Program-made: the position numbers and the translations under genes
Source of the DNA: Methanomassiliicoccales archaeon
GTDB taxonomy: Archaea > Thermoplasmatota > Thermoplasmata > Methanomassiliicoccales > UBA472
NCBI GenBank assembly: GCA_028682895.1
Contig: JAJRAK010000029.1
Span: 7,156 to 71,155, forward strand
DNA length: 64,000 bases
Direction of reading: 5' to 3'
The notes under the pieces: generated by a model
What the model was told of the DNA's origin: nothing
What the model saw: the letters and a program-made list of their open reading frames with translations, nothing else
Databases searched by the model: none
Part shown: one piece after another, positions 1,265-45,375 of the stretch
Layout of the letters: every line of letters begins with the position of its first letter
Numbering within the stretch: the stretch's first letter is position 1

Positions 1265-4200
1265 TCACTTCACCCTTCTAGGGACCATCATCACGACCGC
1301 GGCACCGGCCATGGCGACGATGATGACTATGGCCACGATGATGAAGATGTCGCCGCCCCCGTTCAGGGTCTTGTCCATCTCCACCTCGTCCAGTGCTAGC
1401 GTCTCCTCGGCGGTGACGGTGATGTTCATGCTGAGCATGTCATAACCATCGCGCTCGGCGGTCATCTCGTACGTTCCGGTCGGGACGTCCTCGAATAGGA
1501 AGTGACCTTCCTCGTCCGTCGTCGCAGTCATGCCGTTGCTAAGTGTGATCGTCACATTCGCCAATCCACGTCCGTAGGCATCGACCAGATCTCCCTCGAC
1601 ATCGCCTGCGTCGATGGTGCTGAAGGCCCATGTCAGCGATACGGTGTTGCCGGCAAGGTCCTTTCCGCTCATGGTGACCGTGTAATCACTGTTGTATTCC
1701 AGATCGGAAGCGGGTATGAAGGAATAGGTCGTGCCGCGGCCGGATATGGCGCCGTCTACACCGCTGATGGTGACCAAGATCGTACTGGCGTCCATGTCCT
1801 CGGAGAACACCGCGATAATGGCGGAGCTGACCGCGGCGCCGCTGCCCATGGGTGAGTGCGCAACGATCGTCGGGGATACCGTATCGATGATCAGGTGGAC
1901 GATGCCTTCGTTGAAGTTGCCGGCCAGGTCGTACGCCCTGACGTATATGGTGTAGTTGCCATCGTCGAGATCGTTGAGCGCGTAGCTCGTTCCGTTCACG
2001 ACGGCCCAGTTCACACCGTCCGTGCTCACGCTGCAGTATAATATGCCGGAAGCATCGGTGGTGTTCCAGAATACCACCAGGTCAACATCGTTGGAGTGAG
2101 CACCGTCCGCGGGGGTCACTTCCAGGACCGGGGCGATGGTATCTACCACGAACGTCGCCTGTCCGTACCCGATGTTGCCGACGGCGTCCGTCGCCCTGAG
2201 CTGTACGGTATAGGTACCGTCAGCGAGGGTGGACAGTGCGTACGAGCTGCCGCTCACCGATGTCCAGGTCGTCCCATCCATACTGATCTCCGTGTGAGAT
2301 ATGCCGGACGTGACGTCGGAGGCCGTCCATGTGACCGTGACAGCTGGGTCGTTCAGATAGGAGCCGTTGCCGGGAGCTGTGATCACGACCGATGGAGCGG
2401 TCGTGTCCACGATGACCGTGATGACCATCCACTCGTTGTTCCCGGCCTTGTCGAACGCCCTGACGGAAATGATGTGCGTGCCGTCAGATGCCCCTCTAAA
2501 AGTGTAGGAAGTGGCGTTAGCGGGGAGACTTGTGATCACACCGTCCACGCTCACCCAGTAGTGGTCCACACCGCACCGGTCATCACTTCCGGTCCAGGTG
2601 ATAGTTACATTGCTGTCGGCATCGTAGGAACCGTCAGATGGCACTGTGATCGTCACCGACGGGTCGGTCCGATCGATGATGAACGAGATCGCGGTGATGT
2701 TGAAGTTCCCTACGTTGTCATATGCCCTTACGCGGACCGTGTAGTTGCCTTCGGCCAGGTCGGTAAACAAGTAGCTGGTGCCATTCACCAATACCCATTC
2801 CCCCCCGTTCACACTGATGCTGCAGTTGGCGATGCCGATGATATCCTCGGCCTCCCAGGACAGAAGGACCGTGCCCGGGTTAAGGCTCGTTCCGTTCGCG
2901 GGCGAGGTGATGTAGACCGTGGGATCGGTCAGGTCGATGATGATGACCATCGAGGTCACGATGTAGTTGCCGAGGGCGTCGGTGGCGTTGAAGTATATCG
3001 TATGAATGCCCTCGGAGAGCGTGCCGTTGGTGTAGCTGGTGACATCCGTTACATTGACCCAGGTGCCGTTGTCAAAGCGTATCAGGACGCTGCTGACCCC
3101 GGCGATTGCATCACTAACGGTCCAATTGACAGGCACCACACCGTTACCGTGGTACGAATCGTTCGCAGGGGATGATACCACGACCACCGGGGCGGTGGTA
3201 TCGACGGAGACGGTCACATTGGTCTCGTTAAAGTTGCCAGCGCGATCATAGGCCCTCACGAACAATGTATAGTTGCCATCGGCCAAGGAGAACATGTGCT
3301 CCGTACCGGTGACGTTCGTCCAGGTGGTCCCGTCAGAGCTGACGGCGTAATGGTCTATGCCAGAGAGGGTATCGCTGGCGGTCCATGTCACCATCACGCT
3401 GCCGGTACTGTTCACATAGCCATTTGCTGGTGCATCGATGGCCAGGGACGGGGCTGTGACATCGTAGATGAAGTAAAAGATGCCATGAACGCTATTTCCA
3501 GCCATATCGACGAAAGTACATTCAAAGTAGCCATTGCCCTCCGTGCTCAAGCCTATCGTGGCAATGATGCCATCATAGTTTGTGTAAAAGATAATGCCCA
3601 TAAAACTGCTAAGAGAACAATTCATGATACGCAGCCTCTCGAACCCTATAGGAGCGTAATCTGACACGTTCACGTAGATATCCAGGGTGTTCTGATTTGT
3701 ATAGAATGTCGAACCGTCCGCGGGCGTCAGAGAGAACGTGATACCGGTGCTGTACACCACTGTCACATTATCGGACAGGACGCGACCTAGGGCATCGGTC
3801 ATGGTGACGGTGATGTTGTTGGTCCCTTCCATGAGGCTCACGTTGCCAGTCCATGTTGTCGTACCGATGCATGATCCAGATTCATCGTTAGCATCGTTGT
3901 ACCACACGATCGACGTTATGCATGCGTCCGCCGCCTCCCCGCGGATGGTGATGTTGGAGATGTTGGTATAGGCTAACGTCGCTGGGGAGGTGATACCTAT
4001 CGAAGCGTTCGCGATCGGACGTAGGTCAGCATTCCCTGCGCCGCCGTCCAAGGCGTAGCTCACGTCAACCAAGCCGTCGTGATCGGCATCGGGATATGTC
4101 CGATCGCTCCAGAGGTTGCCATATGTGGAGTTCCATCTGTTGTCGCCGTCATCGTATGCCTGTACGGCCGATGAATTATAAACGACGCCTGCGCCGTTGT

Positions 4201-7200
4201 TGGATGTCAGTTCGTTCCCGAACAGCAGGTTTCCGGTCGATGCGTTCAGATAGATGCCGTAGCCGTCGCTCCCGTAGATGGAATTGGCGTTGATGCTGTT
4301 GTTCTCAGAATTATTGAGATAGATGCCGTTGTCCGAGCTGCTATTGACTGAGTTGCCGTACACGACGGTGTCATTGCTGTCATACAAAGATATGCCGTAA
4401 TCGGCCATTGCGATCATGTTCTCGTTGATGATGTTCCTGTGGCTTTCCTCGATCTTCACTCCCTCGCCGCATAGGCCGATGAGATTGGAGGAGATGGCGC
4501 TATCGTTGGTCTGATAGAAACATATGCCCATGTTAACGTAGATGATCTGGTTGCCTGTCACGTTGATGCCTGAAGATTCCGTGATGTTTATCCCGAAATT
4601 GTGGTTCGAACAGCTGTTCCCCACCACGGTGCTGTTCAAATTCGTGAACAACGCAATGCCGCAGAAGCTACTGGTGCAGCTATTGTTCGATACCAGGTTG
4701 TTTTGGGAGATCGTGCTCCCTTCCGAGCGGATGAAGATACTGATCCATGACCCTTCGCAGACGTTCCCGGTCACTGTGCTGCCTGAGGTGGAGTCGAGGC
4801 AGATGTCGCGCATGTTGTATTCGCAGGTATTGTTCCAGATGTCGCAATCAGAGGAATCGAGCAGATAGACCCCGTAGCCAGCTTCTGTGCCGTAGCAGTA
4901 CATGATGCGGTTCTCGAACACCTCGATGTTGTTGCAGGAGAACAGGTACGTACCGTTCGCGTTTTCATTGAGCGTGTTGTCATCGATATCGATATGATGA
5001 CAGTATTCCGCCCGGATGCCATCGGTGCTGTTGATGAGCGTGTTGCCTGTCACGTTCAGGTAGGAAGAGGACAGCAGGTTCACACCGGTGACGTTACTGT
5101 CGTAGAACAGGTTGTTCGAGATCGTGTTGCTGTTCGAACTGAATATCTGGACGCCCACTGAGTTGTTTACGAGCGTATTGTTCGTGACGATGTTGTTGAA
5201 CCCCGTGTCAATGCTGACACCTATGCTGTTGTTGCAGAGCAGGTTGCCCGATACGACATTTCTGCTGGAGTAGTAGACCCATATCCCATCCTGACCGTTG
5301 GGGCAGGTGTTGTTCATGACGACATTGTCATCGGAGTAGTAGAGATAGATGCTGTATGAGCAATCGATGTCCCCGTTACATGTGTTCCCCGAAATGGTAT
5401 TATTAAACGAGGAACCCACGTAGATACCGTAATCGGTATTGACGTTCCCGATGCAGGTGTTGTTGATGATAGTATTGAAGTTGCAATTGCTAGCCAATGA
5501 GATACCGATACCATCATTGTCAGAACAATTGTTCTCGGAGATGACATTACTGGAACAGGAACTAAAGAGCGATATTCCGTTCTGGGTGTTCTCGGTGCAG
5601 GTGTTGTTCGACACCAGGTTATCACCTGATGAATATGCGTATATGCCTATCATGCTACCATAGCAAGTGTTATTGGCTACCGTACTCTCCGTCACCGCAT
5701 TGAGGAATATCCCGTACACGGTGCTGTAGCAGAGGTTGTTGGTTATCGTCTCGTTCGTCGAGCTCTCGACGAAGATGCCCGAGCTGCCCGAATTGGTCGT
5801 CGTACAGGTGTTGTTCTCGAAATGGTTGTGATCACTGGAAACCACGACATAGATGCCCCTGTCCTTGTTCCCGACGAGATCGTTGTTAGCAATGTAGTTG
5901 CTGTCGGAGCTGTAGAGGTGTATGCCATTGGTGTTCCCGGTGCAGGTGTTGTTCGTTACTCTGTTGTTTTCGCACCCAGAGTATGCCAGGCATATGCCGT
6001 GCGAGATGAAGTTATTGCAGGTGTTGTTATCGATGATGTTGCTGAACGATGATTCCAGGCGGATGCCACTGTCGCTACCTGTGATACAAACGTTGTTCGA
6101 TACGATGCCGCCGTTTGAGCTTACAAGCATAATGCCGAAGTAGTCATTGTTGCACACGTTGTTCGTCACGATCAAGTTGGATGACGAGAGAGACCTGATA
6201 CCGCAGTCGTTCGTGTTGCCGTTGCAGGTGTTGCCTGTGATCGTAGTGTTGGGAGAGTACCCGACATTGATGCCGTTCGTGTTGCCGTTGCAGGTGTTGG
6301 CTACGACGGTGCAGTTGGACGAGGATAGGATGTAAATACCGTTCCTATCGCTATAGCAGGTGTTGTACGATATGGTGTTGTTGCTGGAGCCCCAGACGAG
6401 TATTCCGCCACGGATGTTGCTGTAACAGGTGTTGTAACTGACGGTGTTGAACGTGCTTCCGGATTCCAGCTGGATCCCGTTCCCGCTGTAGTCGTCTTCG
6501 TTGCGATTGGAGCTACGACATGTGTTGTTCGATACATCGTTATAGCTGGAAGAGCTCAGAAGGATGCAGTTATAGTACCCGCTGACGCAGGTGTTTCTTG
6601 AGACCGTATTATTGTTAGAGTATTCGAGGAGTATGCTGTGGAAATGACCGGTAAGCGTATTGCCGCTGATGATGTTGTGGTTCGAACCGGTGATGCGTAT
6701 GCCGCTGTCGTATGAACCGGTGGTGCAGGTGTTGCTGAGAATCTGGTTATAATGTGAATTTTCGACAAGGATGCCCATGTAAGTATTTTCATTCACGGTG
6801 TTGCCCGAGAGGGTGTTGTTGCTGCTGCCCCCGTACATGTGGATACCGTAATAGTTGCCGTTACAGTTGTTGTTCACTATGAGCACGTGCTGGACATTGA
6901 CCAGGACGATCCCGCCATCGGATGAGGCGCCGTGAAGATTGCAATAACTTATGGTGACATATGAAACGGTGTTGGCGATGTAGATGCAATAAGTGCTGGC
7001 CGTTATATCATAAGCTAGAATGCTGTAGGGGTTGGATGAAGATCCATCTCCACTCCATCCTTCCGACGCTGCCATGCTCACCAGTTGTGATTCGTTGTAG
7101 ATGATTATGGGTGAATGAGTGGTAAGTGTAGGTGCTTTAACAGCGTCCGTAGCGCTGGCCGTGCCAGACGTTCCGACTGAAATAAAGATGGCGGCCATGA

Positions 7201-7246
7201 ATAAAACGAAAGCTATGCTCAGCAATCTCTTAGAAATGCTCCTCAT
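1265..7246 (-). CDS. Giant (1993 aa) surface protein: signal peptide, long right-handed parallel beta-helix (PbH1/NosD-like) region, tandem Ig-like domains, CarboxypepD_reg-like domain, C-terminal TM anchor
   Basis: Uninterrupted 5.98-kb ORF. N-terminal signal-like LLSIAFVLFMAAIFISVGTSGTASA. Dozens of ~22-aa N-x-[IV]-x-x-N-x-C/I units. Repeated VDTTAP...W..SD..SG[IV]..Y...DG..W..V.G.SY....L.DG.Y...VRA.D.AGN modules. C-terminal IFIIVAIVIIVAMAGAAVVMMV followed by PRRVK. Confidence 0.9.
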   Translation of the reverse strand: MRSISKRLLSIAFVLFMAAIFISVGTSGTASATDAVKAPTLTTHSPIIIYNESQLVSMAASEGWSGDGSSSNPYSILAYDITASTYCIYIANTVSYVTISYCNLHGASSDGGIVLVNVQHVLIVNNNCNGNYYGIHMYGGSSNNTLSGNTVNENTYMGILVENSHYNQILSNTCTTGSYDSGIRITGSNHNIISGNTLTGHFHSILLEYSNNNTVSRNTCVSGYYNCILLSSSSYNDVSNNTCRSSNRNEDDYSGNGIQLESGSTFNTVSYNTCYSNIRGGILVWGSSNNTISYNTCYSDRNGIYILSSSNCTVVANTCNGNTNGINVGYSPNTTITGNTCNGNTNDCGIRSLSSSNLIVTNNVCNNDYFGIMLVSSNGGIVSNNVCITGSDSGIRLESSFSNIIDNNTCNNFISHGICLAYSGCENNRVTNNTCTGNTNGIHLYSSDSNYIANNDLVGNKDRGIYVVVSSDHNHFENNTCTTTNSGSSGIFVESSTNETITNNLCYSTVYGIFLNAVTESTVANNTCYGSMIGIYAYSSGDNLVSNNTCTENTQNGISLFSSCSSNVISENNCSDNDGIGISLASNCNFNTIINNTCIGNVNTDYGIYVGSSFNNTISGNTCNGDIDCSYSIYLYYSDDNVVMNNTCPNGQDGIWVYYSSRNVVSGNLLCNNSIGVSIDTGFNNIVTNNTLVNNSVGVQIFSSNSNTISNNLFYDSNVTGVNLLSSSYLNVTGNTLINSTDGIRAEYCHHIDIDDNTLNENANGTYLFSCNNIEVFENRIMYCYGTEAGYGVYLLDSSDCDIWNNTCEYNMRDICLDSTSGSTVTGNVCEGSWISIFIRSEGSTISQNNLVSNNSCTSSFCGIALFTNLNSTVVGNSCSNHNFGINITESSGINVTGNQIIYVNMGICFYQTNDSAISSNLIGLCGEGVKIEESHRNIINENMIAMADYGISLYDSNDTVVYGNSVNSSSDNGIYLNNSENNSINANSIYGSDGYGIYLNASTGNLLFGNELTSNNGAGVVYNSSAVQAYDDGDNRWNSTYGNLWSDRTYPDADHDGLVDVSYALDGGAGNADLRPIANASIGITSPATLAYTNISNITIRGEAADACITSIVWYNDANDESGSCIGTTTWTGNVSLMEGTNNITVTMTDALGRVLSDNVTVVYSTGITFSLTPADGSTFYTNQNTLDIYVNVSDYAPIGFERLRIMNCSLSSFMGIIFYTNYDGIIATIGLSTEGNGYFECTFVDMAGNSVHGIFYFIYDVTAPSLAIDAPANGYVNSTGSVMVTWTASDTLSGIDHYAVSSDGTTWTNVTGTEHMFSLADGNYTLFVRAYDRAGNFNETNVTVSVDTTAPVVVVSSPANDSYHGNGVVPVNWTVSDAIAGVSSVLIRFDNGTWVNVTDVTSYTNGTLSEGIHTIYFNATDALGNYIVTSMVIIIDLTDPTVYITSPANGTSLNPGTVLLSWEAEDIIGIANCSISVNGGEWVLVNGTSYLFTDLAEGNYTVRVRAYDNVGNFNITAISFIIDRTDPSVTITVPSDGSYDADSNVTITWTGSDDRCGVDHYWVSVDGVITSLPANATSYTFRGASDGTHIISVRAFDKAGNNEWMVITVIVDTTAPSVVITAPGNGSYLNDPAVTVTWTASDVTSGISHTEISMDGTTWTSVSGSSYALSTLADGTYTVQLRATDAVGNIGYGQATFVVDTIAPVLEVTPADGAHSNDVDLVVFWNTTDASGILYCSVSTDGVNWAVVNGTSYALNDLDDGNYTIYVRAYDLAGNFNEGIVHLIIDTVSPTIVAHSPMGSGAAVSSAIIAVFSEDMDASTILVTISGVDGAISGRGTTYSFIPASDLEYNSDYTVTMSGKDLAGNTVSLTWAFSTIDAGDVEGDLVDAYGRGLANVTITLSNGMTATTDEEGHFLFEDVPTGTYEMTAERDGYDMLSMNITVTAEETLALDEVEMDKTLNGGGDIFIIVAIVIIVAMAGAAVVMMVPRRVK
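1880..3475 (-). repeat. Six tandem ~265-280 bp coding repeats (Ig-like modules) inside the 1993-aa gene
   Basis: Each unit starts with a D-[VTL]-T-[AD]-P boundary (DVTAP, DTTAP, DLTDP, DRTDP, DTTAP, DTIAP, DTVSP) and carries the W..SD..SGI and VRAYD.AGN blocks. Coordinates are approximate. Confidence 0.75.
4150..6950 (-). repeat. Parallel beta-helix (PbH1-type) coding repeat region of the 1993-aa gene
   Basis: Continuous run of short degenerate units such as NNTCxxNxxGIxLxxSxxNxIxxN. Coordinates are approximate. Confidence 0.7.
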
Positions 7247-18038: not shown

Positions 18039-19081
18039 CCCTTTACGCCCCTGAACTCCTGGTCCTCCTTGACCTCGTCAGGCATCTTATGGGCGATCTC
18101 CCGGAAGCGGTCGATGAAGCCCTTGTACTCATCGTAGGAATAATCGAGCTCGTGGCTGCCCTTCTCCGTCCTCAGACGGGGTATGACCTCCCCGTCCTCG
18201 TTCTGCTCGGTGTGTATCTCACTGAAGAAGTACGCGGACCTGTCGAAGGAGACGTTGGCGATCGCGGCACCCTTGGACAAGGCCATGGTGTCCTTGTAAT
18301 ACTTCATGAGGATCTCCTTGGCATAGTCCTCCTTGGTGAAGTCCGCCTTCTTCTTCAACATCGCGCGCAGGCCGCGCTCGTCGTTGCCAAGGTCGTCGAA
18401 CGTGTCAGGCCATCCGTTCGCCTTTATGATCTCCTTGTCCAGGAGGTCGAACTTGGTCAGCACGAATACGGGGTAGATCTTGGCCTTGTCCTCGTCCTTG
18501 TCATAGACCTGGGACTTGTACTTGGAAACGGCGGATATCAACGTGGCCATGAACACGTCGTAGTTGCGCATCTCGATGAAGCGCTCCGAACGGGCCTCGG
18601 CGTTGATCTTGCTCAGGTCGATGAGGAACACCAGGACGTTGCACTTCAAGAGCTCCTGGAACGACGTGCTCAACGAATCGAAGTTGAACTCACCCTTGTA
18701 CGTGCCGGTGGATATGGACTCGCGGTACTGCTCGATGGAGCGAAGGATGTCGAGGTCCTCACCGGCGATATCGTATACGGTGAAGTCCATTATATCGAAG
18801 CGGGAGGACGCCTTCTCTCCGACGGCGAAGAATCTGCGGTAGCCGTACTTGAACTTGTACTTGGCCATGTTGCCCTTCAGCGTGGCGTCGGCCCACTGCC
18901 CCTTCATGAGGTTGGTGCGGTGGTTGCCGAAGATGCTGGTGAAGGAGGGGTCCGTGGTGAAGCGGAACTCACCTGGACCGGAGTTCTCCCTTGAGTTGGT
19001 ATAGCGGACCTGTGACTCATACAAAAGACTGAGGAAGATCGTCTTCCCGCAGGATCTGTCCCCGAATATCGCGACCGGCAT
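18035..19081 (-). CDS. P-loop GTPase (TRAFAC/Ras-like motif set), 348 aa, unassigned family ('GTPase-A')
   Basis: G1 GDRSCGKT at residues 7-14, G3-like VYDIAGED, G4-like VLTKFDLL. A TATA-like box at 19105-19118 lies ~31 nt upstream of the ATG. Confidence 0.75.
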   Translation of the reverse strand: MPVAIFGDRSCGKTIFLSLLYESQVRYTNSRENSGPGEFRFTTDPSFTSIFGNHRTNLMKGQWADATLKGNMAKYKFKYGYRRFFAVGEKASSRFDIMDFTVYDIAGEDLDILRSIEQYRESISTGTYKGEFNFDSLSTSFQELLKCNVLVFLIDLSKINAEARSERFIEMRNYDVFMATLISAVSKYKSQVYDKDEDKAKIYPVFVLTKFDLLDKEIIKANGWPDTFDDLGNDERGLRAMLKKKADFTKEDYAKEILMKYYKDTMALSKGAAIANVSFDRSAYFFSEIHTEQNEDGEVIPRLRTEKGSHELDYSYDEYKGFIDRFREIAHKMPDEVKEDQEFRGVKG

Positions 19082-35530: not shown

Positions 35531-36955
35531 ATGGTAACTTTCCAAGATTTCGGTCTCAGAGATGAGATACAGAAGGCCATCGACAAAATGGGTTTCGTCG
35601 AGCCTACCCCGGTGCAAGAGCGCACCATTCCAATCACCATGAAGGGCAAGGACATGATAGCCCAGGCCCAGACCGGCACGGGCAAGACCGCTGCCTTCGG
35701 TATCCCGATACTCGAGGCGTTGACCAAGGGGGTCAAGCCTTTCTCATTGATATTGGTCCCCACCAGGGAACTGGGCGCGCAGGTGTGCGACGAGATAAAG
35801 AAGCTCTCCTACTTCATGGACGACGTACGAGTGCTCTCCGTGTACGGCGGTAAGTCAATCGATGACCAGATAGACGCGTTCCGCAAGGGAGTGGACATTG
35901 TGGTCGGTACTCCTGGACGTGTCATAGACCATCTGCACAGGGGAACGTTGAGCTTGAACGAGATAGAGGTGCTGGTGCTGGACGAGGCGGACCGCATGCT
36001 GGACATGGGGTTCATCGAGGATATCGAGTATATCGTGTCCAAGGTCAAGACGCCGCGCCAGACCATGCTGTTCTCCGCCACCATACCGAATGGCGTTCGC
36101 GAGATAGCGGCCAAGTACATGTCCGATCCGGAAATAGTCATGATCGGCGAGGAGCAGATAGTGCTGCCGACGACAAAGCAGGTCTATTTCAACATCGAGA
36201 GGAAGAACAAGATCTGGGCGCTGTGCCGCGTCCTTGATGCTTACAGACCGAAGGCCATCGTCTTCGTGCAGACGAAGGTCATGGTCGACATCCTGGCCAA
36301 GCGATTGTTATCGTACGGATATCCGGTCGGTTCCCTTCACGGGGACCTTACCCAGTCACGTCGGGAGAAGGTGCTCAACGACTTCCGCAGCGACAAGACC
36401 CATGTGCTCATAGCCACGGACGTCGCCGCCCGCGGATTGGACATCGAAGGTGTGACGCATGTCATAAACTACGACATACCTGAGGACCCAGAGATCTACG
36501 TCCACCGCATCGGACGTACGGGAAGGGCCGGCAAGGAAGGTGTGGCGATAACTTTCATCACTTCCAAGGAAGTGCATCTGCTGAGAAAGATCAACGAGTT
36601 CGGCGTGACCGAGATCGAGCATCTGGAAGTGCCGGAGAGCGGCCGCAAGGACGTCATCCGGAAGGTCATGGACTTCGAGGACCAGGCGGACCTGTACGGC
36701 ATGGTCCTGTTCCAGATCAGCGCCGAGGGAACGCCAGTGGAGCGCGGAGCGCTTTTGGACATGCTCAACCGCAAGCTGCGCGTGCCTGAGATCGCCGTGG
36801 GCAACATCAACCTGTTCGACGACCGGACGGAGTTCGAGATACACAAGGACTCGGCCAAGAAGGTGCTCATGGAGCTGAAGTCGCTGCGCGTGGCGGACAA
36901 GAAGCTGAAGGTGGAGATCGTCCACCGCGAGCTGCCGCCAATATCGATGCAGTGA
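35531..36955 (+). CDS. DEAD-box ATP-dependent RNA helicase with DbpA-type C-terminal RNA-binding domain
   Basis: Q motif F..LGL....A......PTPVQ, AQAQTGTGKT, PTRELA-like, DEAD, SAT and HRIGRTGRAG. Confidence 0.92.
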   Translation: MVTFQDFGLRDEIQKAIDKMGFVEPTPVQERTIPITMKGKDMIAQAQTGTGKTAAFGIPILEALTKGVKPFSLILVPTRELGAQVCDEIKKLSYFMDDVRVLSVYGGKSIDDQIDAFRKGVDIVVGTPGRVIDHLHRGTLSLNEIEVLVLDEADRMLDMGFIEDIEYIVSKVKTPRQTMLFSATIPNGVREIAAKYMSDPEIVMIGEEQIVLPTTKQVYFNIERKNKIWALCRVLDAYRPKAIVFVQTKVMVDILAKRLLSYGYPVGSLHGDLTQSRREKVLNDFRSDKTHVLIATDVAARGLDIEGVTHVINYDIPEDPEIYVHRIGRTGRAGKEGVAITFITSKEVHLLRKINEFGVTEIEHLEVPESGRKDVIRKVMDFEDQADLYGMVLFQISAEGTPVERGALLDMLNRKLRVPEIAVGNINLFDDRTEFEIHKDSAKKVLMELKSLRVADKKLKVEIVHRELPPISMQ

Positions 36956-37002
36956 ACGCCTAGACAACCAACAGTATCTATCTATTGCACTTGCACCGGA
37001 GT

Positions 37003-37262
37003 CTCGTTCTTCGTGATGACCGCTATGACGTGAGGCGGCCGTACTGTCCTGATCGGTGTTGTAGAAGGAAGCACCTGCCAACGGTGTACTGTCGATGTTC
37101 TGCAAATCGTTTACTGTATCGTTCAGTTGGCACTGAAGGGCAATCGCGCGCGGAAGGATGATAGTGTTCATGCCCTGCTGGAAACGCGCGTTGGTGGAAC
37201 TGATGTTCAAATTGATCAAAACACTTGGTCATCAGTGTAGTAACAGTATACGCCCGTTGATA
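37003..37262 (-). pseudogene. Decayed ~87-codon fragment homologous to codons of the 2370-aa gene (copy of 39208-39478)
   Basis: Alignable by eye to 39208-39478: STGVYCYYTDDQVF*-INLNISSTNARFQQGMNTIILPRAIALQCQLND... versus STGVYRYSADDQVFLINLNVSSANARFQQGMNTIILPRAIALQCQLND.... It carries an in-frame TGA (37216-37218) with a 1-nt indel, and a 5-nt deletion near 37033-37043. Confidence 0.8.
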
Positions 37263-37309
37263 ATGAATAACGACTGTGGACGTGATTGTGGGGACGGGCC
37301 ATATTTGCT

Positions 37310-38850
37310 CACGGTTTAAGACATCTTAAAAGGTCATGAATTATCTTAAAGCATGTGAAGATGGACAATAATGTAATTTATATATATATTAAATATAAAT
37401 TTTAATCTTTATATTCAAACATATTCATCTCCATGATATCTTCGAATGAATAATCCTTTCTTTCATTTTTATATGAACAGATAGTTCCATAACCCATATC
37501 ACAATTATATTTTTTTATTGGGATTGCCCACTGATTTCTTAATACATTGATAATATCGTTAATTGTACTCGGCGGTTTAAAACCGAGATTAATTCTTTTT
37601 CCATTCTTTAATATTAATACTATGGAAACAGGGGAATTCTTCCATAATACCCCCCGATGCTCATCGATAAGTTGGGTCATGTTACCACGAATAATCGATG
37701 CATTACGGATAGTATCCCGAGGAACTTCGATAGTATTAATGTTGGAACGATATAGACGCGGTGATGGAACGATAATAGAATCGGTTTTAATGATTATTGG
37801 TATACTTCCATCCAATTCTCTTTTTAAAATTTTTTCTGTTGAAAATAAAAAAATACCCAAGAACGTCAATATTAATAAAGTAAAAAAATATATAAATTCA
37901 AATGTGATAAAAGCTATCAGTGAAGCATATAATGCAACAATTATTGTTAATAATATTACAAGTCGAAGGATCCATTGAATCCTAATAATTTTATTTTTAT
38001 CAAGTTCGATTCCGCGAAAATCATATTTCGGCAATCTTTCCCTGAACAGTATTTGTTTTTCCAATACAATCACCAATCATTCATGATAATGGTTAGATAT
38101 TGTCGAAGCTAATGCCGTTGCATCGATTGCTATACTAGCGATAGGGCTTATTTTTACAATTGCTTTCCATATTGGATTTGAAAATGGATTAATGGGGAAT
38201 GCCAATGATACAAGATAACTTGCGATTGATATTACTAATCCAGTAACACCAAATAGGATACTAGTTGAATAATCGTTTATTTGTGTTGCGGCTATAGCAA
38301 GAAAAACACTAAATAAACTTACAGCTAGAATAAAAATATCATTAGCAACCTTTTTATGAGCAACATATGCGATAATAGCTCCTATCAGTGATGTAGCCAC
38401 CGCAAGAAAACCCTCGAATAATATTGATTGATCATCCCCCAACATTTCCCAAACCCAATCCCCCCAATTATCGATAGCAAAATAGAAAAGCATTACTAAT
38501 GGAGTTGCTGCTAAGAAATTTATTAACTCTCCGAAGAGAATATCCCCGATAAAACTACACGGTATTGAACGATATAATATTGTAGTAATTAATAATATTA
38601 TTAGACTCGATATAGCTAAACAATTAATCATATCGGAATTAAAAATAGAAATGCAAATATCATCTACATCTGCTTGACTGACTTCATTATTATTATAAGC
38701 CTGTGAAGCCTTTGATACCTTTGAATTGAGGCTGTTAAAACAAGGTTCGTTACTATCGGTTATTGTTTGTTTTTCCTGATTTAGCTGCTCGCCTAATAAA
38801 TAGCGAATGAAATCAACAATCCAATCCACGAAAGCGCAGAACCCATCTAC
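37310..38850. other. Strongly AT-rich compositional island (borders approximate)
   Basis: For example, 37801-37860 has 13 G+C of 60, whereas 39601-39660 in the same gene has 39 of 60. The island covers the 224-aa gene and the last ~260 codons of the 2370-aa gene. Confidence 0.8.
37402..38076 (-). CDS. Small membrane protein (2 TM + PH-like soluble domain), 224 aa, AT-rich, non-ATG start
   Basis: The ORF begins TTG GTG immediately after the TGA of the giant gene (38077-38079), and there is no ATG for >100 codons. It has two adjacent hydrophobic helices, then a beta-rich domain. Confidence 0.6.
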   Translation of the reverse strand: MVIVLEKQILFRERLPKYDFRGIELDKNKIIRIQWILRLVILLTIIVALYASLIAFITFEFIYFFTLLILTFLGIFLFSTEKILKRELDGSIPIIIKTDSIIVPSPRLYRSNINTIEVPRDTIRNASIIRGNMTQLIDEHRGVLWKNSPVSIVLILKNGKRINLGFKPPSTINDIINVLRNQWAIPIKKYNCDMGYGTICSYKNERKDYSFEDIMEMNMFEYKD

Positions 38851-41800
38851 GATGAAATCCACAGCATCTTCTATTACAGAGATTGCAGTAGAGATGAGGT
38901 TCGCTACGATCTCCAGCCCTATGATCATTAAGTGAGCCCATAGCAGCAACACCCCGCCGGTCGCGATCCATATCAGGAAGTCGAACACCAGGTTCGCTAT
39001 GTCGCTTATCACGTCCAAGGGATCGAAGAAGTTAGGCGCCCCTCCGAGCCCGGAGTTAGTGATGGACGTCGGTATCGACGACAGTATGTCTTTCGGAAGG
39101 TGCATGAGGTAGACGGACGTGGACGATATCGTCACGTTGTTGCCTATGCGTGCGCCGGTCGAGTTGTGCGTCAGCATCTCTAGGATCGCCTCTGCCTGCT
39201 GATAGGTCACGTTCTTCGTTATGACCGCTATGACGTGCGATGATGCCGACGCACTGTCCTGGTCGGTGCTGTAGAAGGAAGCGTCGGCAAGCGGCGTGCT
39301 GCCGATGCTCTGCAGGTCGTACAGCGTATCGTTCAATTGACATTGTAAGGCGATGGCACGGGGCAGGATTATCGTGTTCATCCCTTGCTGGAAACGTGCG
39401 TTGGCGGAACTGACGTTCAAATTGATGAGGAAGACCTGGTCGTCTGCGCTGTAACGGTACACGCCTGTGGAGACCTGATCGAGACCGTAATCCCCGTCGT
39501 CTCCCGTCCCGTTCACGACGATCACCTTCGCCTTCTCGGCGACAGTGCGCTGCAGCCCGACCTTCATGTACCCGTCCGCGTCGTTGTCGAGCCAGCCGCA
39601 GGTGCCCTGGAACGACGTCTGGTACTGCGTCGTCGACAGCGTCCAGGTCACCGTGTGCTCCAGGTTGCTCGTCGAAGATACGTCCAGCTTGATGTCGTCG
39701 CCCGGCACCGTCCCGGCGTTGTCGGCGACGGCGTAGAATATGACGGAGACGGACGTCACCGTCTCCGCGATGTCGATATCGTACGTCCATCCCGGATAGT
39801 ACAGCGTGTCGGTGTGCGCGGCCATGCGCTTGGTCGAAAGCATCTCGCCGTTGTACTTTATGACGAAGAAGATGGTACGGTCGTCGTCGTAATTGATGTC
39901 CTCCCTCGTCCGGTACTCCAGTATGGAAACGCGCAGCACCGCGTCGCCCATGTACCTGTCGACGTTGTCGTTGTAGCCGTCGTCGTCCGTGTCGGCGCGC
40001 GTCGGGTCAGTAACGTAACTGCATAATGTAATCCCAGATACCTCGTTCCCGTCGGAAACGCCATCGCTGTCGCTGTCCGAGGAGCGCGGGTTGGTGTACC
40101 AGCCGTCGATCCCGAAGTTCACCTCCTCGCCGTCCGATAGGCCGTCATCATCGGAGTCTCTGTCCAATACGTTCGTCGTCCCGTTCACCTGCAACCGTAC
40201 GTACTCCACGCGGCCTTCCGTTCCTGCCGTGATATCGGTGACGTTGATCTTCCAGGTGCTGGCCGACGTCAGGTCGCTGGCGGAGTACGGTGACGACAAT
40301 GAGAAGAGGTTGACCAGCGCGTAGTAGTTCGCCCCGCTGCCGGTGCCTGAGGCCTTTATCGTCTTGGTCGTCCCGGTCGCGCCCTTGGACATCTGCACGC
40401 GCAGCTGCGTCTCCGCCCCGTGCATTATCCCGATGACGAGGCAGAACGACGATATGGTGCCGGATATGGCCGGTACCGATAATGAGATCGTCACCTTCGA
40501 AGAGCCGTCCGGTATCAAGTGCGATTCGTCCGTAGACCATGTGTACGAGTACTTCTCTGAACCGTCCGTCAGGTCGTCGTTATCGGAATCGGCGTCCGTC
40601 GGGTCGGTGAGGTACGAGCTCGTTCTTTCCACGTTGTCGTTCAGGCCGTCCGTGTCGGTGTCGGCGGAGAACGGGTCCAGGTCGTAAGTATGCGTGCCGA
40701 TGGCCGACATCGTAACGCGCAACGCCTCGTACGCGTCGCTGTAGGTGTCGCCGTCGCTGTCCTTGTATACGGTGATGGAGTCCACGGCTACCGTTGTCGT
40801 GGACGTTATCTCGAACATTATGTTGATCTGTCCCCCGGCCACCGAGTCGTATGTTATGGCGGATGTCACGAACATGTCAGTGCGCCAGGCGGTGCCGGTG
40901 GTGAACGATCCCAAAGGCGCGGTTCCGGTACTGTTGATGAACTGCTTGAGCGACGTGGTGCCGGACGTGACCTTGTACGTTATGCTTATGAGGTACTGAG
41001 CATCGCTCTCCGCCCCGTTCAGGTAGAAGTTGGCGTTGTTCCCGCTTACAGTGTTACGCCAGTAGACGCTTCCGCTGGAAGTGATAGCACCCCATTCGCC
41101 GTTGTCCAGCAGGCTTATGCCTGGCGTATGCGACGATCCTGTCGTATCTCCGGAGACGCCTACGTCCGTATAATATCGGGATGTCCAGAGAACCACGCGG
41201 GTGAGGTTCTTTATCGCGGAGGTGAGCTTGATGCGCACGGTCGATCCGGGCGTCGTTCCCTGTGCGTCCGTGTACGTCGGATTGAGCTGCACGACGGCGG
41301 ACGTGCCCCAGCTCTCCAGCGTGCCTATGCTTGCGTAGGCGGAGGTGACGTACTGCTGCACGCCGATGCCCGTGTACGAATCGAGACCTACGAACTCTAG
41401 TAAGTACGTCTGGTCGCTGCGCGGCAGGGTGATCAGTAACGTAGCAGAGACGGAACCGTTGACGACGGCGTCGTCTATGGCCCAATTGTTCTCCAGCATG
41501 ACGCCGGGGTAGTTCTGAGAGGTGCCGAAGAAGTCTGAGACGTACGCAACGGCGACGGCGTCGATGCTGTCGACGACGATGGCGTACGAGAAGCGGAGCT
41601 TGACGTTGCATGCGAAAAGGGTACCGGACGAGTCGGTAAGCCATTCGCTCTTGAGAACGAAGCTGTAGGTGTTGGCGGCGGTGCTTCCCGGAAGCGTGGT
41701 CACGGTGACCCATGAGTCACCGACGAGCATCTGGACGCCGACATCGGCCGAGGCTGTGTAGGCGATCGAGAGCTGATAGTAGGTACTCGACTGGTACGTT

Positions 41801-44800
41801 CCGTCGTATATGTTGAGAAGGAAGCAGCTGTTCTCCACCGCTTGCCTGCTGCCGCCCGAGGCCGTGCCCCAGCCAGTGCCATTCAGGATGTTCAGTCCCG
41901 GAAGGTTTTGCATGAGGTAGTTATCGCCTGCGGAACCGACGTCAACGCTGAAGCGGTCGCTGCCCCCTAATAATCTGACCGACAATGAATAGGAGCCCTG
42001 GTTCGTTCCGGCGTTGTGGTACAGCCGTACCTTCCAAACGCCGGAAGCGTTGACCGTGAGCTGAACGTTCTCGTCGACGCTGGTGCCGCCGGTGGACGAT
42101 GATGCCAGCGTTCCGGAGGGGTTGTACAGATAGAGCTGATAGTCGAATGACGTGGGAACGTCGAGAGCGACCCTTATCGTCTGGCCGTTCAGAAGAGGTA
42201 CCCCGTAATAATCGTTGACGTCCAATGCGGAATCGAGATATCCCAGATACGTGCCTGGTGTCAGGAGCGAAGCCGTGCCGATATCGTCCGCGGCATCGAC
42301 GCCCAGCCCGGCATCGCCGACGATCTTGGTGCTGAACGTAAGGTCGGTGCTCTGTTCGTTAACATTATTATCGCCGGTGTACGCGGTCGTCACCTTGTAA
42401 TGATAGGTTGCACCTCCAGTGAGATCGGTGATGTCCACCGTATGAGATGTATCGCTGGTACCAGTCGCGGTCGTGCCGTAGGATGACGTGAGGCCGTATT
42501 GAACGACCGATGTAGCTGCGTAGTTCGTGGTCCATGTGATTCGCACGGAATTGAGATCGATGAGCGCAGACACGGGCGAGCTCATTGTGAGGTCGCTGGT
42601 CGTGAACGTGCGATCGGTACTCGATTTTGTATATCCGGATGTGGAGGATTGCACCTGATAATGATATGTGGTGCTCGTGGCTAAATTGCTCAATATCCTC
42701 GAGTGATATATACCATCAGTTCCTGTGCGGGTCGTGGTGTACGATGTTGTCGTTCCGTACTTCACGACCGTGGTGGACTCATAGTTCGTGGTCCAGGTGA
42801 TTTTCACGCTATTTGGGCCATTGAGGGCGGACGATACGGAGGTTATGCTGAGGTCCTGCGTAGTGAACGTATCATCACCGCTTTCGTTGGAACTATTGGT
42901 ATCAGCTGATGCCGTGGACATGACATAGAAATGATATGTCGTGGTCGTAGACAGTCCGGTGAGATTCACCGTATGATATGTGCCTGTGTCTCCGCTCGCC
43001 GTGTGGCCATATGAAGTGGTGGTGCCGTAACAGACCGTACTGTTGGCCGCCACGTTCGTCTGCCAGTTGATACGTGCTGAAATGGGGCTCGTCAACGTGA
43101 CATCGATATTGCTGATGGTGATGATGACCTGGGCCGATGTGAATGAACAATCGGTGGTGTTCGAAGCGATCGAGAATCCGTTCATGGAGTAGGTCGAACT
43201 TACCTTGTAATGGTACACCGCGTTTGAACCGAGATCGGAGATGGTCAATGAGTGAGACGTGGTCAGGGTACTGGATTCGACGTGATTACCATAGGAGGAA
43301 GTAGTGCCGTAATCCACCCGGGAATCCGATTCCACATCAGTTGCCCATGTGATGTTGGCACATCCAGAAGCGGTTGTTATGGAGATCGAGTATATACTAA
43401 TCTGATCTGGATAGGTCATAAAGGACGTCGGTGAAGTCCATATGTTTTCCCAATATGATGTGGTCGTACTTTGTATCGCATAATATGTAGTGTTACTGCT
43501 CAGACCAGTAATCGGTGCTGTGTAATCATTAGTGCCCCAATTTTGGCTCATTGTAGCTACAGCATAATTTGGCAGGGTAGATGTGGACGTGCCCCAGAGA
43601 ACATACATTATCGCCATCGAAGAAGATGTCCATTGAGCCGTAGCAGTGCTGTTCGTGATGTCAGATATAACACAGCTGGATAGAAGACTAGAGAAGAAAC
43701 CTGATGCACCTACGGTGGAAGTGATGCCTGTTGTAGAAACATCGTCTGTTGCTGTTGCGGATACTGAAACGAGATTGCGAACTATCACGTCCTGTACATC
43801 CTCAATCCCGTCCAGATCGGCATAGGGTGTGGAGACGAAATAGGAATCCAGTTCATCCCTCAGGTCCGAGGCGTTCTCGATCGCCAATGCCTCCTCGCTG
43901 TTGTTGCGGTGGGCGATGATGTTACCGATCCGTTCGTTCAGCTCGGACATGGAATTGTTACCATGCCTGAACTTCTTATGATCGATCGAGGATATGTAAC
44001 TGGAAAGGCGCGTGATGTCCGGTACGACGTATTCGATGTCCTGACTCATGAACAGTTCCTGCGTATCGGAATGCTCTTCTGCGTAGACGCAGGAGAAGGA
44101 GCCGGATGTTATCGAGAAGATAGCCGGTGAAAAGGCATCGAGACCGGAGGTGGATATCTGCTTGGCGTCGCCTGCGTTCCCCTGCAGGTCGCACTCGGTG
44201 ACATAGACGCTGGAGCATCCGTCTGTAACGACGGTGTAAGCGATGCGCAGAGAGCTTCCGGACGCTGCCAACGAGGCCTCGGATATCGTATCGTTCAGCT
44301 CGATGACGGTATGGGAAATCCAATTGGATGCGGCGCCGAGGCAGCATGCCAGCATGATGCTGTCGTTCTCGACGTAGAGGATGCGCTCGTGACCGTTCAC
44401 CGACATGAGGTCGACGGAGCTTCCGCCGTCGGTCCTGCTTACCAGCGTAGGATCGGTGACGACCGTGCCGTTGTCCGTGATCTGCATGAAGTACAATGCG
44501 TCGGAACTATCCTCGATCATGGCCACGTTGAGCATGTCGTCGAAGAAGGCGATGTCACCGTCAGACGCCGACACCGGGAGCGCCGCCAGCAGCGTGGCAT
44601 TGACCGAACCGTCGATGAGCCTGAACGCCGCCAGCGAGTATCTCGTCGCTTCGTCGGAGATAATGTTCATGGCGATGTATACGGCATCGCCGTCTGTCGT
44701 CAGCGAGGGAGAGCTGCCGACGGACACGGCATAAGCGGTGCTCCAGTCATCGTCGTCCTCAGAGTAGAGGAAATATACGGACGGCATGGCGTCGGCCGTG

Positions 44801-45189
44801 AGCTTTCCCTCGAAAGCTATGGCCGTGCCGAAGGCGCTGCCGAGGACGATGGAGATGTTGGAGATGGAGTAGAAGGAGGTGGAGATCGTCTCATCGGAGG
44901 TGAAGGTGCTCATCGAGTCGTTGGAACATTTCCAGGAAACGCTCTGCGAGCCTATCCGTCCGTCGACCCAAGCTATATGAGCGGTACTGTCCGGACCTAC
45001 GGCCACGCAGGGCGACGATGCCATCGAATTGGATATCGTGATGCGCCTGTCATTATGTTCGATGTTCGAGATGATCTCGTCGACATCGTCGTCAGGCAGT
45101 GCTACTTCCTCCGCGCTCACGTCCGCGGTCATCACGTAGAACGCGGCTATAACCATGAGATAGGCGCAGGCTACGCTGGTCCATTTCAT
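38077..45189 (-). CDS. Giant (2370 aa) mosaic surface protein: signal peptide, BNR/propeller-like region, FN3-like repeats, PPC domain, jelly-roll modules, TSP3-type Ca-binding repeats, P-domain-like module, polytopic C-terminal membrane domain
   Basis: Uninterrupted 7.1-kb ORF. Signal-like VACAYLMVIAAFYVMTADVSA. Five to six ITW.T....S.V.YG.T.SYG......HS..L..L...T.YHY.V repeats. PPC-like DDIGTASLL.PG.Y.GYL....DVNDYY...L..GQTI.V.L. D-x-D-x-D-G-x-x-D repeats. About 6-7 C-terminal TM helices. Confidence 0.9.
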   Translation of the reverse strand: MKWTSVACAYLMVIAAFYVMTADVSAEEVALPDDDVDEIISNIEHNDRRITISNSMASSPCVAVGPDSTAHIAWVDGRIGSQSVSWKCSNDSMSTFTSDETISTSFYSISNISIVLGSAFGTAIAFEGKLTADAMPSVYFLYSEDDDDWSTAYAVSVGSSPSLTTDGDAVYIAMNIISDEATRYSLAAFRLIDGSVNATLLAALPVSASDGDIAFFDDMLNVAMIEDSSDALYFMQITDNGTVVTDPTLVSRTDGGSSVDLMSVNGHERILYVENDSIMLACCLGAASNWISHTVIELNDTISEASLAASGSSLRIAYTVVTDGCSSVYVTECDLQGNAGDAKQISTSGLDAFSPAIFSITSGSFSCVYAEEHSDTQELFMSQDIEYVVPDITRLSSYISSIDHKKFRHGNNSMSELNERIGNIIAHRNNSEEALAIENASDLRDELDSYFVSTPYADLDGIEDVQDVIVRNLVSVSATATDDVSTTGITSTVGASGFFSSLLSSCVISDITNSTATAQWTSSSMAIMYVLWGTSTSTLPNYAVATMSQNWGTNDYTAPITGLSSNTTYYAIQSTTTSYWENIWTSPTSFMTYPDQISIYSISITTASGCANITWATDVESDSRVDYGTTSSYGNHVESSTLTTSHSLTISDLGSNAVYHYKVSSTYSMNGFSIASNTTDCSFTSAQVIITISNIDVTLTSPISARINWQTNVAANSTVCYGTTTSYGHTASGDTGTYHTVNLTGLSTTTTYHFYVMSTASADTNSSNESGDDTFTTQDLSITSVSSALNGPNSVKITWTTNYESTTVVKYGTTTSYTTTRTGTDGIYHSRILSNLATSTTYHYQVQSSTSGYTKSSTDRTFTTSDLTMSSPVSALIDLNSVRITWTTNYAATSVVQYGLTSSYGTTATGTSDTSHTVDITDLTGGATYHYKVTTAYTGDNNVNEQSTDLTFSTKIVGDAGLGVDAADDIGTASLLTPGTYLGYLDSALDVNDYYGVPLLNGQTIRVALDVPTSFDYQLYLYNPSGTLASSSTGGTSVDENVQLTVNASGVWKVRLYHNAGTNQGSYSLSVRLLGGSDRFSVDVGSAGDNYLMQNLPGLNILNGTGWGTASGGSRQAVENSCFLLNIYDGTYQSSTYYQLSIAYTASADVGVQMLVGDSWVTVTTLPGSTAANTYSFVLKSEWLTDSSGTLFACNVKLRFSYAIVVDSIDAVAVAYVSDFFGTSQNYPGVMLENNWAIDDAVVNGSVSATLLITLPRSDQTYLLEFVGLDSYTGIGVQQYVTSAYASIGTLESWGTSAVVQLNPTYTDAQGTTPGSTVRIKLTSAIKNLTRVVLWTSRYYTDVGVSGDTTGSSHTPGISLLDNGEWGAITSSGSVYWRNTVSGNNANFYLNGAESDAQYLISITYKVTSGTTSLKQFINSTGTAPLGSFTTGTAWRTDMFVTSAITYDSVAGGQINIMFEITSTTTVAVDSITVYKDSDGDTYSDAYEALRVTMSAIGTHTYDLDPFSADTDTDGLNDNVERTSSYLTDPTDADSDNDDLTDGSEKYSYTWSTDESHLIPDGSSKVTISLSVPAISGTISSFCLVIGIMHGAETQLRVQMSKGATGTTKTIKASGTGSGANYYALVNLFSLSSPYSASDLTSASTWKINVTDITAGTEGRVEYVRLQVNGTTNVLDRDSDDDGLSDGEEVNFGIDGWYTNPRSSDSDSDGVSDGNEVSGITLCSYVTDPTRADTDDDGYNDNVDRYMGDAVLRVSILEYRTREDINYDDDRTIFFVIKYNGEMLSTKRMAAHTDTLYYPGWTYDIDIAETVTSVSVIFYAVADNAGTVPGDDIKLDVSSTSNLEHTVTWTLSTTQYQTSFQGTCGWLDNDADGYMKVGLQRTVAEKAKVIVVNGTGDDGDYGLDQVSTGVYRYSADDQVFLINLNVSSANARFQQGMNTIILPRAIALQCQLNDTLYDLQSIGSTPLADASFYSTDQDSASASSHVIAVITKNVTYQQAEAILEMLTHNSTGARIGNNVTISSTSVYLMHLPKDILSSIPTSITNSGLGGAPNFFDPLDVISDIANLVFDFLIWIATGGVLLLWAHLMIIGLEIVANLISTAISVIEDAVDFIVDGFCAFVDWIVDFIRYLLGEQLNQEKQTITDSNEPCFNSLNSKVSKASQAYNNNEVSQADVDDICISIFNSDMINCLAISSLIILLITTILYRSIPCSFIGDILFGELINFLAATPLVMLFYFAIDNWGDWVWEMLGDDQSILFEGFLAVATSLIGAIIAYVAHKKVANDIFILAVSLFSVFLAIAATQINDYSTSILFGVTGLVISIASYLVSLAFPINPFSNPIWKAIVKISPIASIAIDATALASTISNHYHE
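42325..43690 (-). repeat. Tandem FN3-like (purple-acid-phosphatase-N-like) coding repeats, ~95-100 codons each
   Basis: Recurrent blocks A.I.W.T...A.S.V.YG.T.SYG....G....H.V.L.GL...T.YH[FY].V. Coordinates are approximate. Confidence 0.7.
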
Positions 45190-45319
45190 CTTTTGAGAAT
45201 TCGTCCAGCTCCCCCCTCGAACTTCCGAGAGTAAATACGTTTTTTTTTGTTATATAACGATTATCTTTGGATTCTAGAAAATAAAATGAAAAATGAATAT
45301 ATTAAATAATATAAGTTAT

Positions 45320-45362
45320 AAAAAGATAAAAAAAGAACGATCGAGTGGCCAGACAGGCCACC
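45320..45362 (-). terminator. Hairpin plus T-tract downstream of the ABC-2 operon
   Basis: Perfect 6-bp stem gtggcc/ggccac with a 5-nt loop at 45344-45360. On the minus strand it is followed by tcgatcgttctttttttatcttttt. Confidence 0.5.
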
Positions 45363-45375
45363 CGATTTTTATTGT

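Follow-up and report, generated by a model that had tools for sequence, protein, structure and literature searches.

The 64-kb stretch of Methanomassiliicoccales DNA considered here (contig JAJRAK010000029.1, positions 7,156 to 71,155; the whole stretch is referred to as the window) carries a giant surface-protein gene encoding 2370 aa (38077..45189, minus strand). Close to its 3′ end the composition of this gene changes abruptly, and the altered composition continues into a small gene directly downstream, the partner gene. Beyond the partner lies copy B (37001..37260, minus strand), a truncated and inactivated version of a segment that is intact within the giant gene (copy A, 39206..39471, minus strand). 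These features are probably accounted for by the exchange of cassettes within a family of Methanomassiliicoccales surface proteins. In such a family, the ~240-residue tail with multiple transmembrane (TM) helices and the membrane-protein gene behind it would be exchanged as one AT-rich cassette, which homologous recombination in the conserved region of normal GC that precedes the tail would move and reshuffle. Reshuffling would yield tandem orphan units, each made of a conserved-region piece, a tail and a partner, and later deletions would leave 3′-truncated stubs at the array ends. In the window, the live tail and partner (38870 to 37402) would be a cassette joined to the resident gene at aa ~2080-2106, and copy B the first ~90 codons of a second unit behind it. 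This second unit would have stayed functional in some genome during most of the time over which it diverged from A, would then have lost everything past codon ~1995, and would have acquired its frameshifts recently.

Composition, breakpoint and flanking repeat

According to its open reading frame (ORF), translation, Pfam matches and hydropathy, the giant protein starts with a signal or TM segment (aa 6-24), followed by FN3-like (Pur_ac_phosph_N) repeats, TSP3-like acidic repeats, a conserved region and a variable multi-TM tail. The conserved region is shared by the whole family (aa ~1880-2130, 38800..39552, minus strand; placed by alignment, a blastp map and motif positions) and closes with two TM helices and the motif VDxIVDxFxAFVDW, found at aa 2110-2128. 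The variable C-terminal tail (CT) comprises ~240 aa of low GC with five predicted TM helices (38080..38799, minus strand), and is delimited by hydropathy, by CT clustering and by a colinear blastn match to a related locus, L005 (handles beginning with L and P denote loci and proteins of relatives). The same CT type also occurs in P0004, encoded at L005, and at L095. The partner gene, placed by its sequence and homologues, encodes 223 aa from a GTG at 38073 (37402..38073, minus strand), within an ORF of 224 aa that opens with TTG at 38076; its start lies 3 nt after the TGA of the giant gene. Exact look-ups with the 224-aa protein and with the protein of the neighbouring helicase gene matched no record; the database copy of the partner (P0041) begins one codon later than the 224-aa ORF.

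Neither the conserved region, nor the tail, nor the partner has a Pfam or NCBIfam match. Hydropathy indicates an N-terminal TM hairpin in the partner, and its C-terminal domain is predicted to be PH-like: the AlphaFold2 (AF2) model, which is of low confidence (pLDDT 59), shows seven strands and a C-terminal helix, and its Foldseek matches are all PH-like, with weak E-values. This weak PH-like prediction recalls bacterial proteins of the bPH/YdbT type. The AF2 model of the conserved region and tail (pLDDT 59) is too poor for a fold search.

Composition profiles place a low-GC island of ~31% GC at 37320..38900, which takes in the CT and the partner and reaches into the spacer that separates the partner stop from copy B (37261..37401). 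It spans the last ~270 codons of the giant gene together with the partner and is the sole low-GC island in the window (26-35% GC vs a background of 55-60%). The spacer is AT-rich and regains normal GC at ~37320, the L005 cassette is homologous only as far as the partner stop, and copy B itself has normal GC. Within the giant ORF, GC at third codon positions (GC3) is 0.78-0.94 up to codon ~2100 and 0.18-0.36 thereafter. Since this shift is not explicable by amino-acid composition and the frame is uninterrupted, the giant gene is a compositional chimera. A second, milder dip lies at 43390-43840 (approximate limits; codons 451-600), where GC3 is 0.40-0.44 vs 0.7-0.9 elsewhere; it falls where the FN3-like repeat block begins and may represent a further mosaic segment.

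The left recombination breakpoint, located by the GC3 profile and by sliding identity to P0001, P0002 and L001, lies at 38870..38960 (aa ~2080-2106). Protein identity to P0001 and P0002 is 86-100% up to aa 2106, apart from 76-80% in the last window of that stretch (aa 2077-2106); it is 56% at aa 2107-2136 and ~20% beyond aa 2137. Compared with L001, nucleotide identity stays mostly at 83-94% as far as ~39050 (with one window of 78%), falls to 70% at 38871-38960 and is noise thereafter. The breakpoint coincides with the drop in GC3, and many short members of the family begin at its equivalent, aa ~2077-2118.

A first reading of this DNA made from the sequence alone had proposed that the giant gene's 3′ end and the partner are bracketed by a diverged direct repeat of ~260 bp. 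The repeat withstands alignment. Compared by blastn with the whole window, 36956-37401 gives a single strong non-self match, in which 37001-37260 and 39206-39471 share 77.8% identity over 266 columns with 2 gaps (E=1.2e-56); MAFFT, local alignment and a repeat search agree on the pair, and the bounds first read by eye (37003-37262 and 39208-39478) fall within 2-7 nt of those from blastn. A and B lie on the same strand as a direct repeat, 2.2 kb apart, and blastn finds no third copy in the window. Copy A is intact and in frame, covering codons 1907-1995 of the conserved region. Copy B, a pseudogenised stub truncated at its 3′ end, lies just past the stop of the convergent helicase gene, as first described, its edge being 45 nt away. 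The lesions read from the letters also reappear in the alignment: a 1-nt deletion leads to an in-frame TGA at 37216-37218, and 5 nt are missing at ~37034. The interval between the copies, first estimated at ~1.95 kb with the last ~375 codons and the 224-aa gene, measures 1945 nt and takes in the final 376 codons of the giant gene as well as the 223/224-aa ORF that abuts it. The sequence-only reading had further regarded this arrangement as the footprint of module exchange following the logic of Rhs and contact-dependent inhibition (CDI) loci. Exchange is supported by the composition and by the tail polymorphism, partner co-variation, orphan units, stubs and cassette indel described below. As the breakpoint lies ~100 codons downstream of copy A, however, the A/B repeat does not mark the crossover.

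Several kinds of boundary do recur within the repeat. At aa 1984-1995, around the sequence HVIAVI(T/S)KN, short orphans start, stubs end and the longest exact A-B run is found, and in general orphan starts and stub ends cluster near aa 1980-1995. A site-specific recombination core at this position was considered and rejected, as its DNA varies among loci about as much as coding sequence would. An inverted repeat (37000-37023 and 45125-45148; 21/24 complementary, blastn E=5e-4) nearly flanks the whole island, its arms being the 3′ end of stub B, which is HVIAVITKN coding sequence, and the signal-peptide codons at the 5′ end of the giant gene. Copy A matches the 45125-45148 arm almost as well as B does. 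Both arms being conserved coding sequence, this match is probably due to chance.

Tail polymorphism and cassette arrays in relatives

A search with aa 1850-2370 of the giant protein returns 40 proteins. The few of them that come with an organism name are all Methanomassiliicoccales, and none of the hits has a Pfam domain. In most, the alignment covers giant aa ~1750-2130 and breaks down beyond it; full length to the C-terminus is reached only by P0001, P0003, P0004 and P0022, of which P0004 has the tail type of the window and the other three another, weakly similar type. Clustering of the CTs of 24 members gives at least 13 tail types, each a multi-TM domain of ~240 aa. Tail and conserved region do not vary together. 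P0022 and P0027 are 98% identical in the conserved region and have unrelated tails, as do the window protein and P0002 (90%). The reverse is seen for P0003 and P0022 (conserved region 69%, tail 81%) and for P0014 and P0020 (68% and 79%), while the window protein and P0004 are 66% identical in the conserved region and 53% identical in the tail. P0001 and P0002 occupy the same slot behind a Flavin_Reduct gene, with different tails and with different partners of 221 aa and 154 aa. In a profile search over 1.84 billion cluster representatives, the family numbers 551 representatives at E<=1e-3 and 94 at E<=1e-30. Among the 551, the module is always C-terminal, in proteins of 76-6055 aa. The closest relatives, P0001 and P0002 (L001 10001-12478), are short forms of 805-825 aa in which giant aa 1-233 (82-87% identical) are joined directly to aa ~1734/1777 onward; this structure indicates that the central ~1500 aa of repeats are an indel polymorphism within the gene family.

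The partners vary with the tails. The window partner is 60% identical (E=3e-60) to L005_p146, the gene that follows P0004 in L005 and hence the same tail type, and 59-64% identical to P0042 and P0043. P0043 also follows a tail of this type, and P0042 follows a truncated ORF of 129 aa. Other tail types have other partners. Across the window, L001, L002, L005 and L006, the partners form two weakly related groups, one comprising p154, p155, p169, p174 and p182 and the other p224 (the window partner), p146, p170 and p213. All of them have an N-terminal TM hairpin and a C-terminal domain of ~100 aa.

A scan of representative genomes yielded eight loci, several of them cut by contig ends. In relatives, a conserved-region piece, a tail and a partner recur as tandem units. 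In L001 the array reads 825 aa + 154, 389 + 155 and 357, then a transposase; in L002-4 it reads 435 + 156 and 422 + 169, then a 75-aa ORF; in L005 it reads 1925 + 174 and 393 + partner; and L006 has three units. Thus L001, L002-4, L005 and L006 carry 1-2 orphan units, and the window keeps only stub B. The cassette of the window has its counterpart in such an orphan: from 39237 to 37410 the window aligns colinearly with L005 6372-8199 (69.5% identity over 1830 nt, blastn), which is the second, orphan unit behind the 1925-aa main gene. In these arrays the tails and partners are all low in GC and the conserved pieces and stubs are GC-normal. Across several species the cassettes have 25-40% GC, and no sampled region of a Methanomassiliicoccales genome is so low. 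In every array of the relatives, the conserved-region piece of the next unit begins 15-140 nt after the stop of the preceding partner, and B sits likewise.

A mis-assembly could in principle have spliced unrelated low-GC DNA and the gene copy of a second strain into the contig, which evidently derives from a metagenome, and arrays of this family often lie at contig ends. Moreover, L006, an ENA contig, contains two exact tandem duplications of 55 nt (5639-5693 = 5704-5758 and 18105-18159 = 18170-18224), one of which splits the main gene into ORFs of 1783 aa and 461 aa; they look like assembly artefacts of k-mer size. Against this, the reading frame in the window is unbroken across the GC junction, the succession of a GC-normal conserved region and a low-GC tail and partner is found in more than eight independent assemblies, and the cassette is colinear with L005 across the junction. 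An artefact of assembly is thus very improbable.

Stubs comparable to B are present elsewhere. The 75-aa ORF closing the L002 array (L002 13588-13815) covers aa 1915-1989, the same segment as B, and a main gene, a partner and a 3′-truncated stub also follow one another in L007 (stub of 241 nt, 83% identical to its own main gene), L008 (1237 nt, 99%) and L009 (732 nt, 85%); the terminal stub of L006 measures 64 nt. Taken together, the stubs in L002 and L006-L009 match the main genes of their respective loci at 82-99% identity. All of these loci sit in the same slot, PolB ... RMMBL-TruB-SecY, and stub and flank meet at a junction that is orthologous among L006, L007 and L008. L008 corresponds to L006 minus 4.13 kb, with flanks 99.5-100% identical, and the indel junction falls within 41-64 nt common to an upstream conserved-region copy and the terminal stub. 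In this pair, the gain or loss of cassettes by homologous recombination through a stub is seen directly.

It may be asked whether terminal stubs such as B are maintained as recombination substrates, providing a downstream homology arm for the excision of cassettes as circles, their capture and their swapping. Stubs do occur at two independent slots (that of the window and the PolB-RMMBL slot of L002 and L006-L009), the junction with the flank is orthologous across several species, and the L006/L008 indel has its junction inside the stub. However, stub lengths of 1237, 732, 266, 241, 175 and 64 nt go with identities of 99, 85, 78, 83, 82 and 88%, a shrinkage with age that resembles decay. The longest exact match left between A and B is 17 nt, stubs are missing from several arrays, and the recurrent breakpoint sequence is conserved no better than its coding role explains. 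Maintenance of the stubs is therefore improbable. Stub B also holds a 69-aa ORF starting with ATG (37023-37232, minus strand), which begins MNTIILPRAIALQCQ, and akin fragments of 76-150 aa appear as clusters in the search of representatives (e.g., P0101, P0108). Short ORFs derived from stubs (69 aa in B, 75 aa in L002-L004 and the 76-150-aa clusters) are most likely annotated debris.

Ancestry of copy B and the genomic slot

Among 84 codons comparable between A and B, 40 are identical, 30 differ only synonymously and 14 non-synonymously, and the differences are distributed as 14:6:32 over the three codon positions. Nei-Gojobori estimates of synonymous (dS) and non-synonymous (dN) divergence and of their ratio (omega, dN/dS) are, for A and B, dS 1.24, dN 0.098 and omega 0.08; for A and L001, dS 0.80, dN 0.035 and omega 0.044; and for B and L001, dS 1.39, dN 0.119 and omega 0.086. 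Nearly all of the A-B divergence therefore arose under coding constraint, and B became a pseudogene late. At the nucleotide level, copy A and the L001 main gene are 86% identical; the values for B are 77.8% against A and 76.6% against L001, and a neighbour-joining tree correspondingly makes B the outgroup to A and L001.

These data decide against a local tandem duplication of a gene segment, one copy of which decayed neutrally and with no module exchange. Its appeal lies in the geometry of a direct repeat on one strand, with the copies 2.2 kb apart. But the distribution over codon positions and the low omega place nearly all the divergence under coding constraint, A is nearer to the gene of another organism than to B, and the DNA between the copies is of foreign composition. 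The substitution pattern together with the position of B outside A and L001 rules out a recent local duplication with neutral decay, and duplication of this kind hardly merits consideration as an explanation of the locus.

The giant gene lies between a DEAD-box helicase gene (35531-36955, recognised by Pfam), with which it is convergent, and an ABC-2 permease gene, in a variable surface-protein slot delimited by a tblastn synteny map and the ORFs of L015 (36956..45375). A metagenome scan with the helicase gave 80 loci, of which only L015 is close. L015 is syntenic on both sides (PPK2 and helicase, 78-81% aa identity; ABC permease and ATPase, 69-80%), and the giant gene, the partner and the stub are all absent from the slot in this sole syntenic relative. 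The slot there is occupied, on the opposite strand (L015 9252-12272), by a 1006-aa LRR/FN3 surface protein with leucine-rich (BspA-like) repeats, five FN3-like repeats and a single C-terminal TM anchor. Since L015 differs across the slot, 36956-45375 is a variable island with B at its very edge, and surface-protein turnover has a hot spot between the helicase and the ABC genes. B may have been truncated when the whole island was acquired or by a later deletion.

In its strict form, the sequence-only reading held that a new 3′ module recombined into this gene in this genome, and that B preserves the beginning of the 3′ end that the gene itself once had, which was moved downstream and then deleted almost entirely. 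Direct repeats do bracket a tail and partner of foreign composition, B lies where the next units of the relatives start (15-140 nt after the partner stop), and displaced fragments of this kind are described in the literature on Rhs orphans (PMC3967940). However, A is as diverged from L001 as the gene upstream of it (83-94% nucleotide identity), while B is an outgroup at 77%, the breakpoint lies ~100 codons downstream of A, and the syntenic L015 lacks the entire gene. As A belongs to the lineage of the resident gene and B is an outgroup, B is not evidently this gene's own former allele, and its origin as a displaced end is not favoured; this sequence of events is possible but rather unlikely. 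Alternative 3′ modules in relatives, the comparison recommended by that reading, do exist in the form of differing tails among family members, but none is visible at this slot, L015 having no such gene.

From its divergence pattern, B is better read as a separate copy of older divergence, namely a piece of another cassette unit, and one that was inactivated late. It may be a donor-derived flank, equivalent to the conserved-region part of the circle in a Campbell-type insertion, or it may belong to an older orphan unit. In either case B would have arrived with the cassette or before it, and would not be this gene's own old end.

Several observations weigh against cassette exchange as the explanation of the whole locus. 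The tail lacks a recognisable toxin fold, and Pfam and NCBIfam recognise no toxin or immunity domain. Different tail types keep weak similarity and a common helical layout, so that the tails could represent a single domain under rapid evolution instead of a set of unrelated effectors. Stubs are not obligatory, since none closes the arrays in two to three cases (L001, L005 and the contig of P0042). The relatives among which the source lineage of B was sought are all 77-84% identical to it, its best matches giving 77-83%; the source lineage is unsampled. Finally, no strain-level relative was found, and L015 (~80% aa identity) is without the gene, so the order of events here is not observed.

Comparison with known module-exchange systems

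Three of the features by which polymorphic toxin systems in general are recognised (Zhang/Aravind 2012; Jamet & Nassif 2015, PMC4436062) have counterparts in this family. The large surface protein has a signal or TM segment and a variable C-terminus that is sharply delimited, as seen in the collapse of identity over aa 2106-2137 and in the tail types. An adjacent small gene that co-varies with the tail, the candidate immunity gene, starts directly behind its stop codon (p224 and L005_p146 accompany the same tail type). Downstream orphan cassettes with a fragment of the conserved region are found in L001, L002-4, L005 and L006, the window having only stub B.

The likeness to Rhs loci lies in the conserved body, the sharp junction, the variable C-terminal module and the small cognate gene directly downstream, as well as in downstream orphans that keep a piece of the conserved region. 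Rhs genes have a GC-rich core vs an AT-rich tail, and an AT-rich tail also follows a GC-richer core in the window gene. In Salmonella, homologous recombination between the main rhs gene and an orphan deletes or switches modules (PMC3967940), and the L006/L008 indel parallels this process. The giant gene is nevertheless no Rhs member: the 2370-aa protein has no Pfam match to RHS_repeat/YD, regular expressions detect neither a YD-core motif nor the junction motif PxxxxDPxGL, and the junction motif of the window is VDxIVDxFxAFVDW. It further differs from Rhs in its archaeal host, in a five-helix membrane module in place of a soluble enzyme, and in the lack of a type VI secretion system (T6SS) context.

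CDI systems combine polymorphic CT and immunity cassettes with orphan arrays downstream of the main gene (PMC3150448). The window family shares the polymorphic CT and small-gene cassettes and the orphan arrays. Some CdiA-CTs are membrane-active, with small membrane immunity proteins. The giant protein does not belong to CdiA, having no TPS domain or FHA repeats by Pfam and no VENN motif by regular expression. In contrast to CDI loci, there is no CdiB, the neighbours are ABC-2 transporter genes and the helicase gene, and the organism has no outer membrane.

The nearest archaeal analogue is VARTIG of the Thermococcales, a large surface protein whose C-terminal part is hypervariable through recombination between genomes (Makarova et al. 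2021, PMC8416519). Its variable downstream genes often encode membrane proteins that match the subfamily, in a layout resembling polymorphic toxins but with no recognisable toxin, and no counterpart outside Thermococcales is reported (PMC8416519). The two systems belong to different orders, and their variable parts differ, being an Ig domain in VARTIG (arCOG07710) and a predicted helical membrane-spanning domain in the window. Another parallel is offered by IdsD/IdsE of Proteus mirabilis, in which the determinants of specificity are variable subdomains that span the membrane, both in a large protein and in a small partner (PMC4471559). The Ids partner consists of two TM helices and a C-terminal domain (PMC4471559), which matches the layout predicted for the window partner. 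This likeness is one of description, with binding between tail and partner inferred from their co-variation. Unlike the window system, Ids is exported by a T6SS, and orphan cassette arrays are not described for it.

Judged from sequence features, tail and partner may form a cognate pair, either a membrane-active effector with its protector or a membrane-embedded recognition pair. By analogy, a variable membrane domain with a co-varying TM-hairpin partner fits a membrane effector with its immunity protein or an Ids-like recognition pair. A more far-reaching proposal, which we regard as speculative, is an undescribed cassette-switching system of Methanomassiliicoccales: AT-rich units would encode a membrane tail and a TM-hairpin/PH-like partner, acting as a contact-dependent effector/protector or a self/non-self identity pair, and terminal stubs would serve as the homology arm for excision, capture and switching. 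No description of the family was found in the searchable literature; the survey of polymorphic toxins in archaea published in mBio in 2019 (cited in PMC8416519) lies outside that scope and may list it.

The locus thus represents a concrete archaeal family with all the genomic hallmarks of Rhs/CDI-type module exchange, yet its variable module is a membrane domain. To our knowledge, archaeal systems of intercellular conflict and kin recognition are almost entirely predicted rather than tested. Methanomassiliicoccales include methanogens of the gut and of wetlands, and if the family proved to be a strain-discriminating or antagonistic surface system, it would bear on the population structure of these organisms.

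Elsewhere in the window, and with neither the conserved region nor the low-GC tail of this family, a second giant gene (1265-7246, minus strand) encodes 1993 aa with NosD/beta-helix, Big_7, Big_13 and CarboxypepD_reg domains and is followed by a 222-aa ORF at 429-1097 (minus strand).

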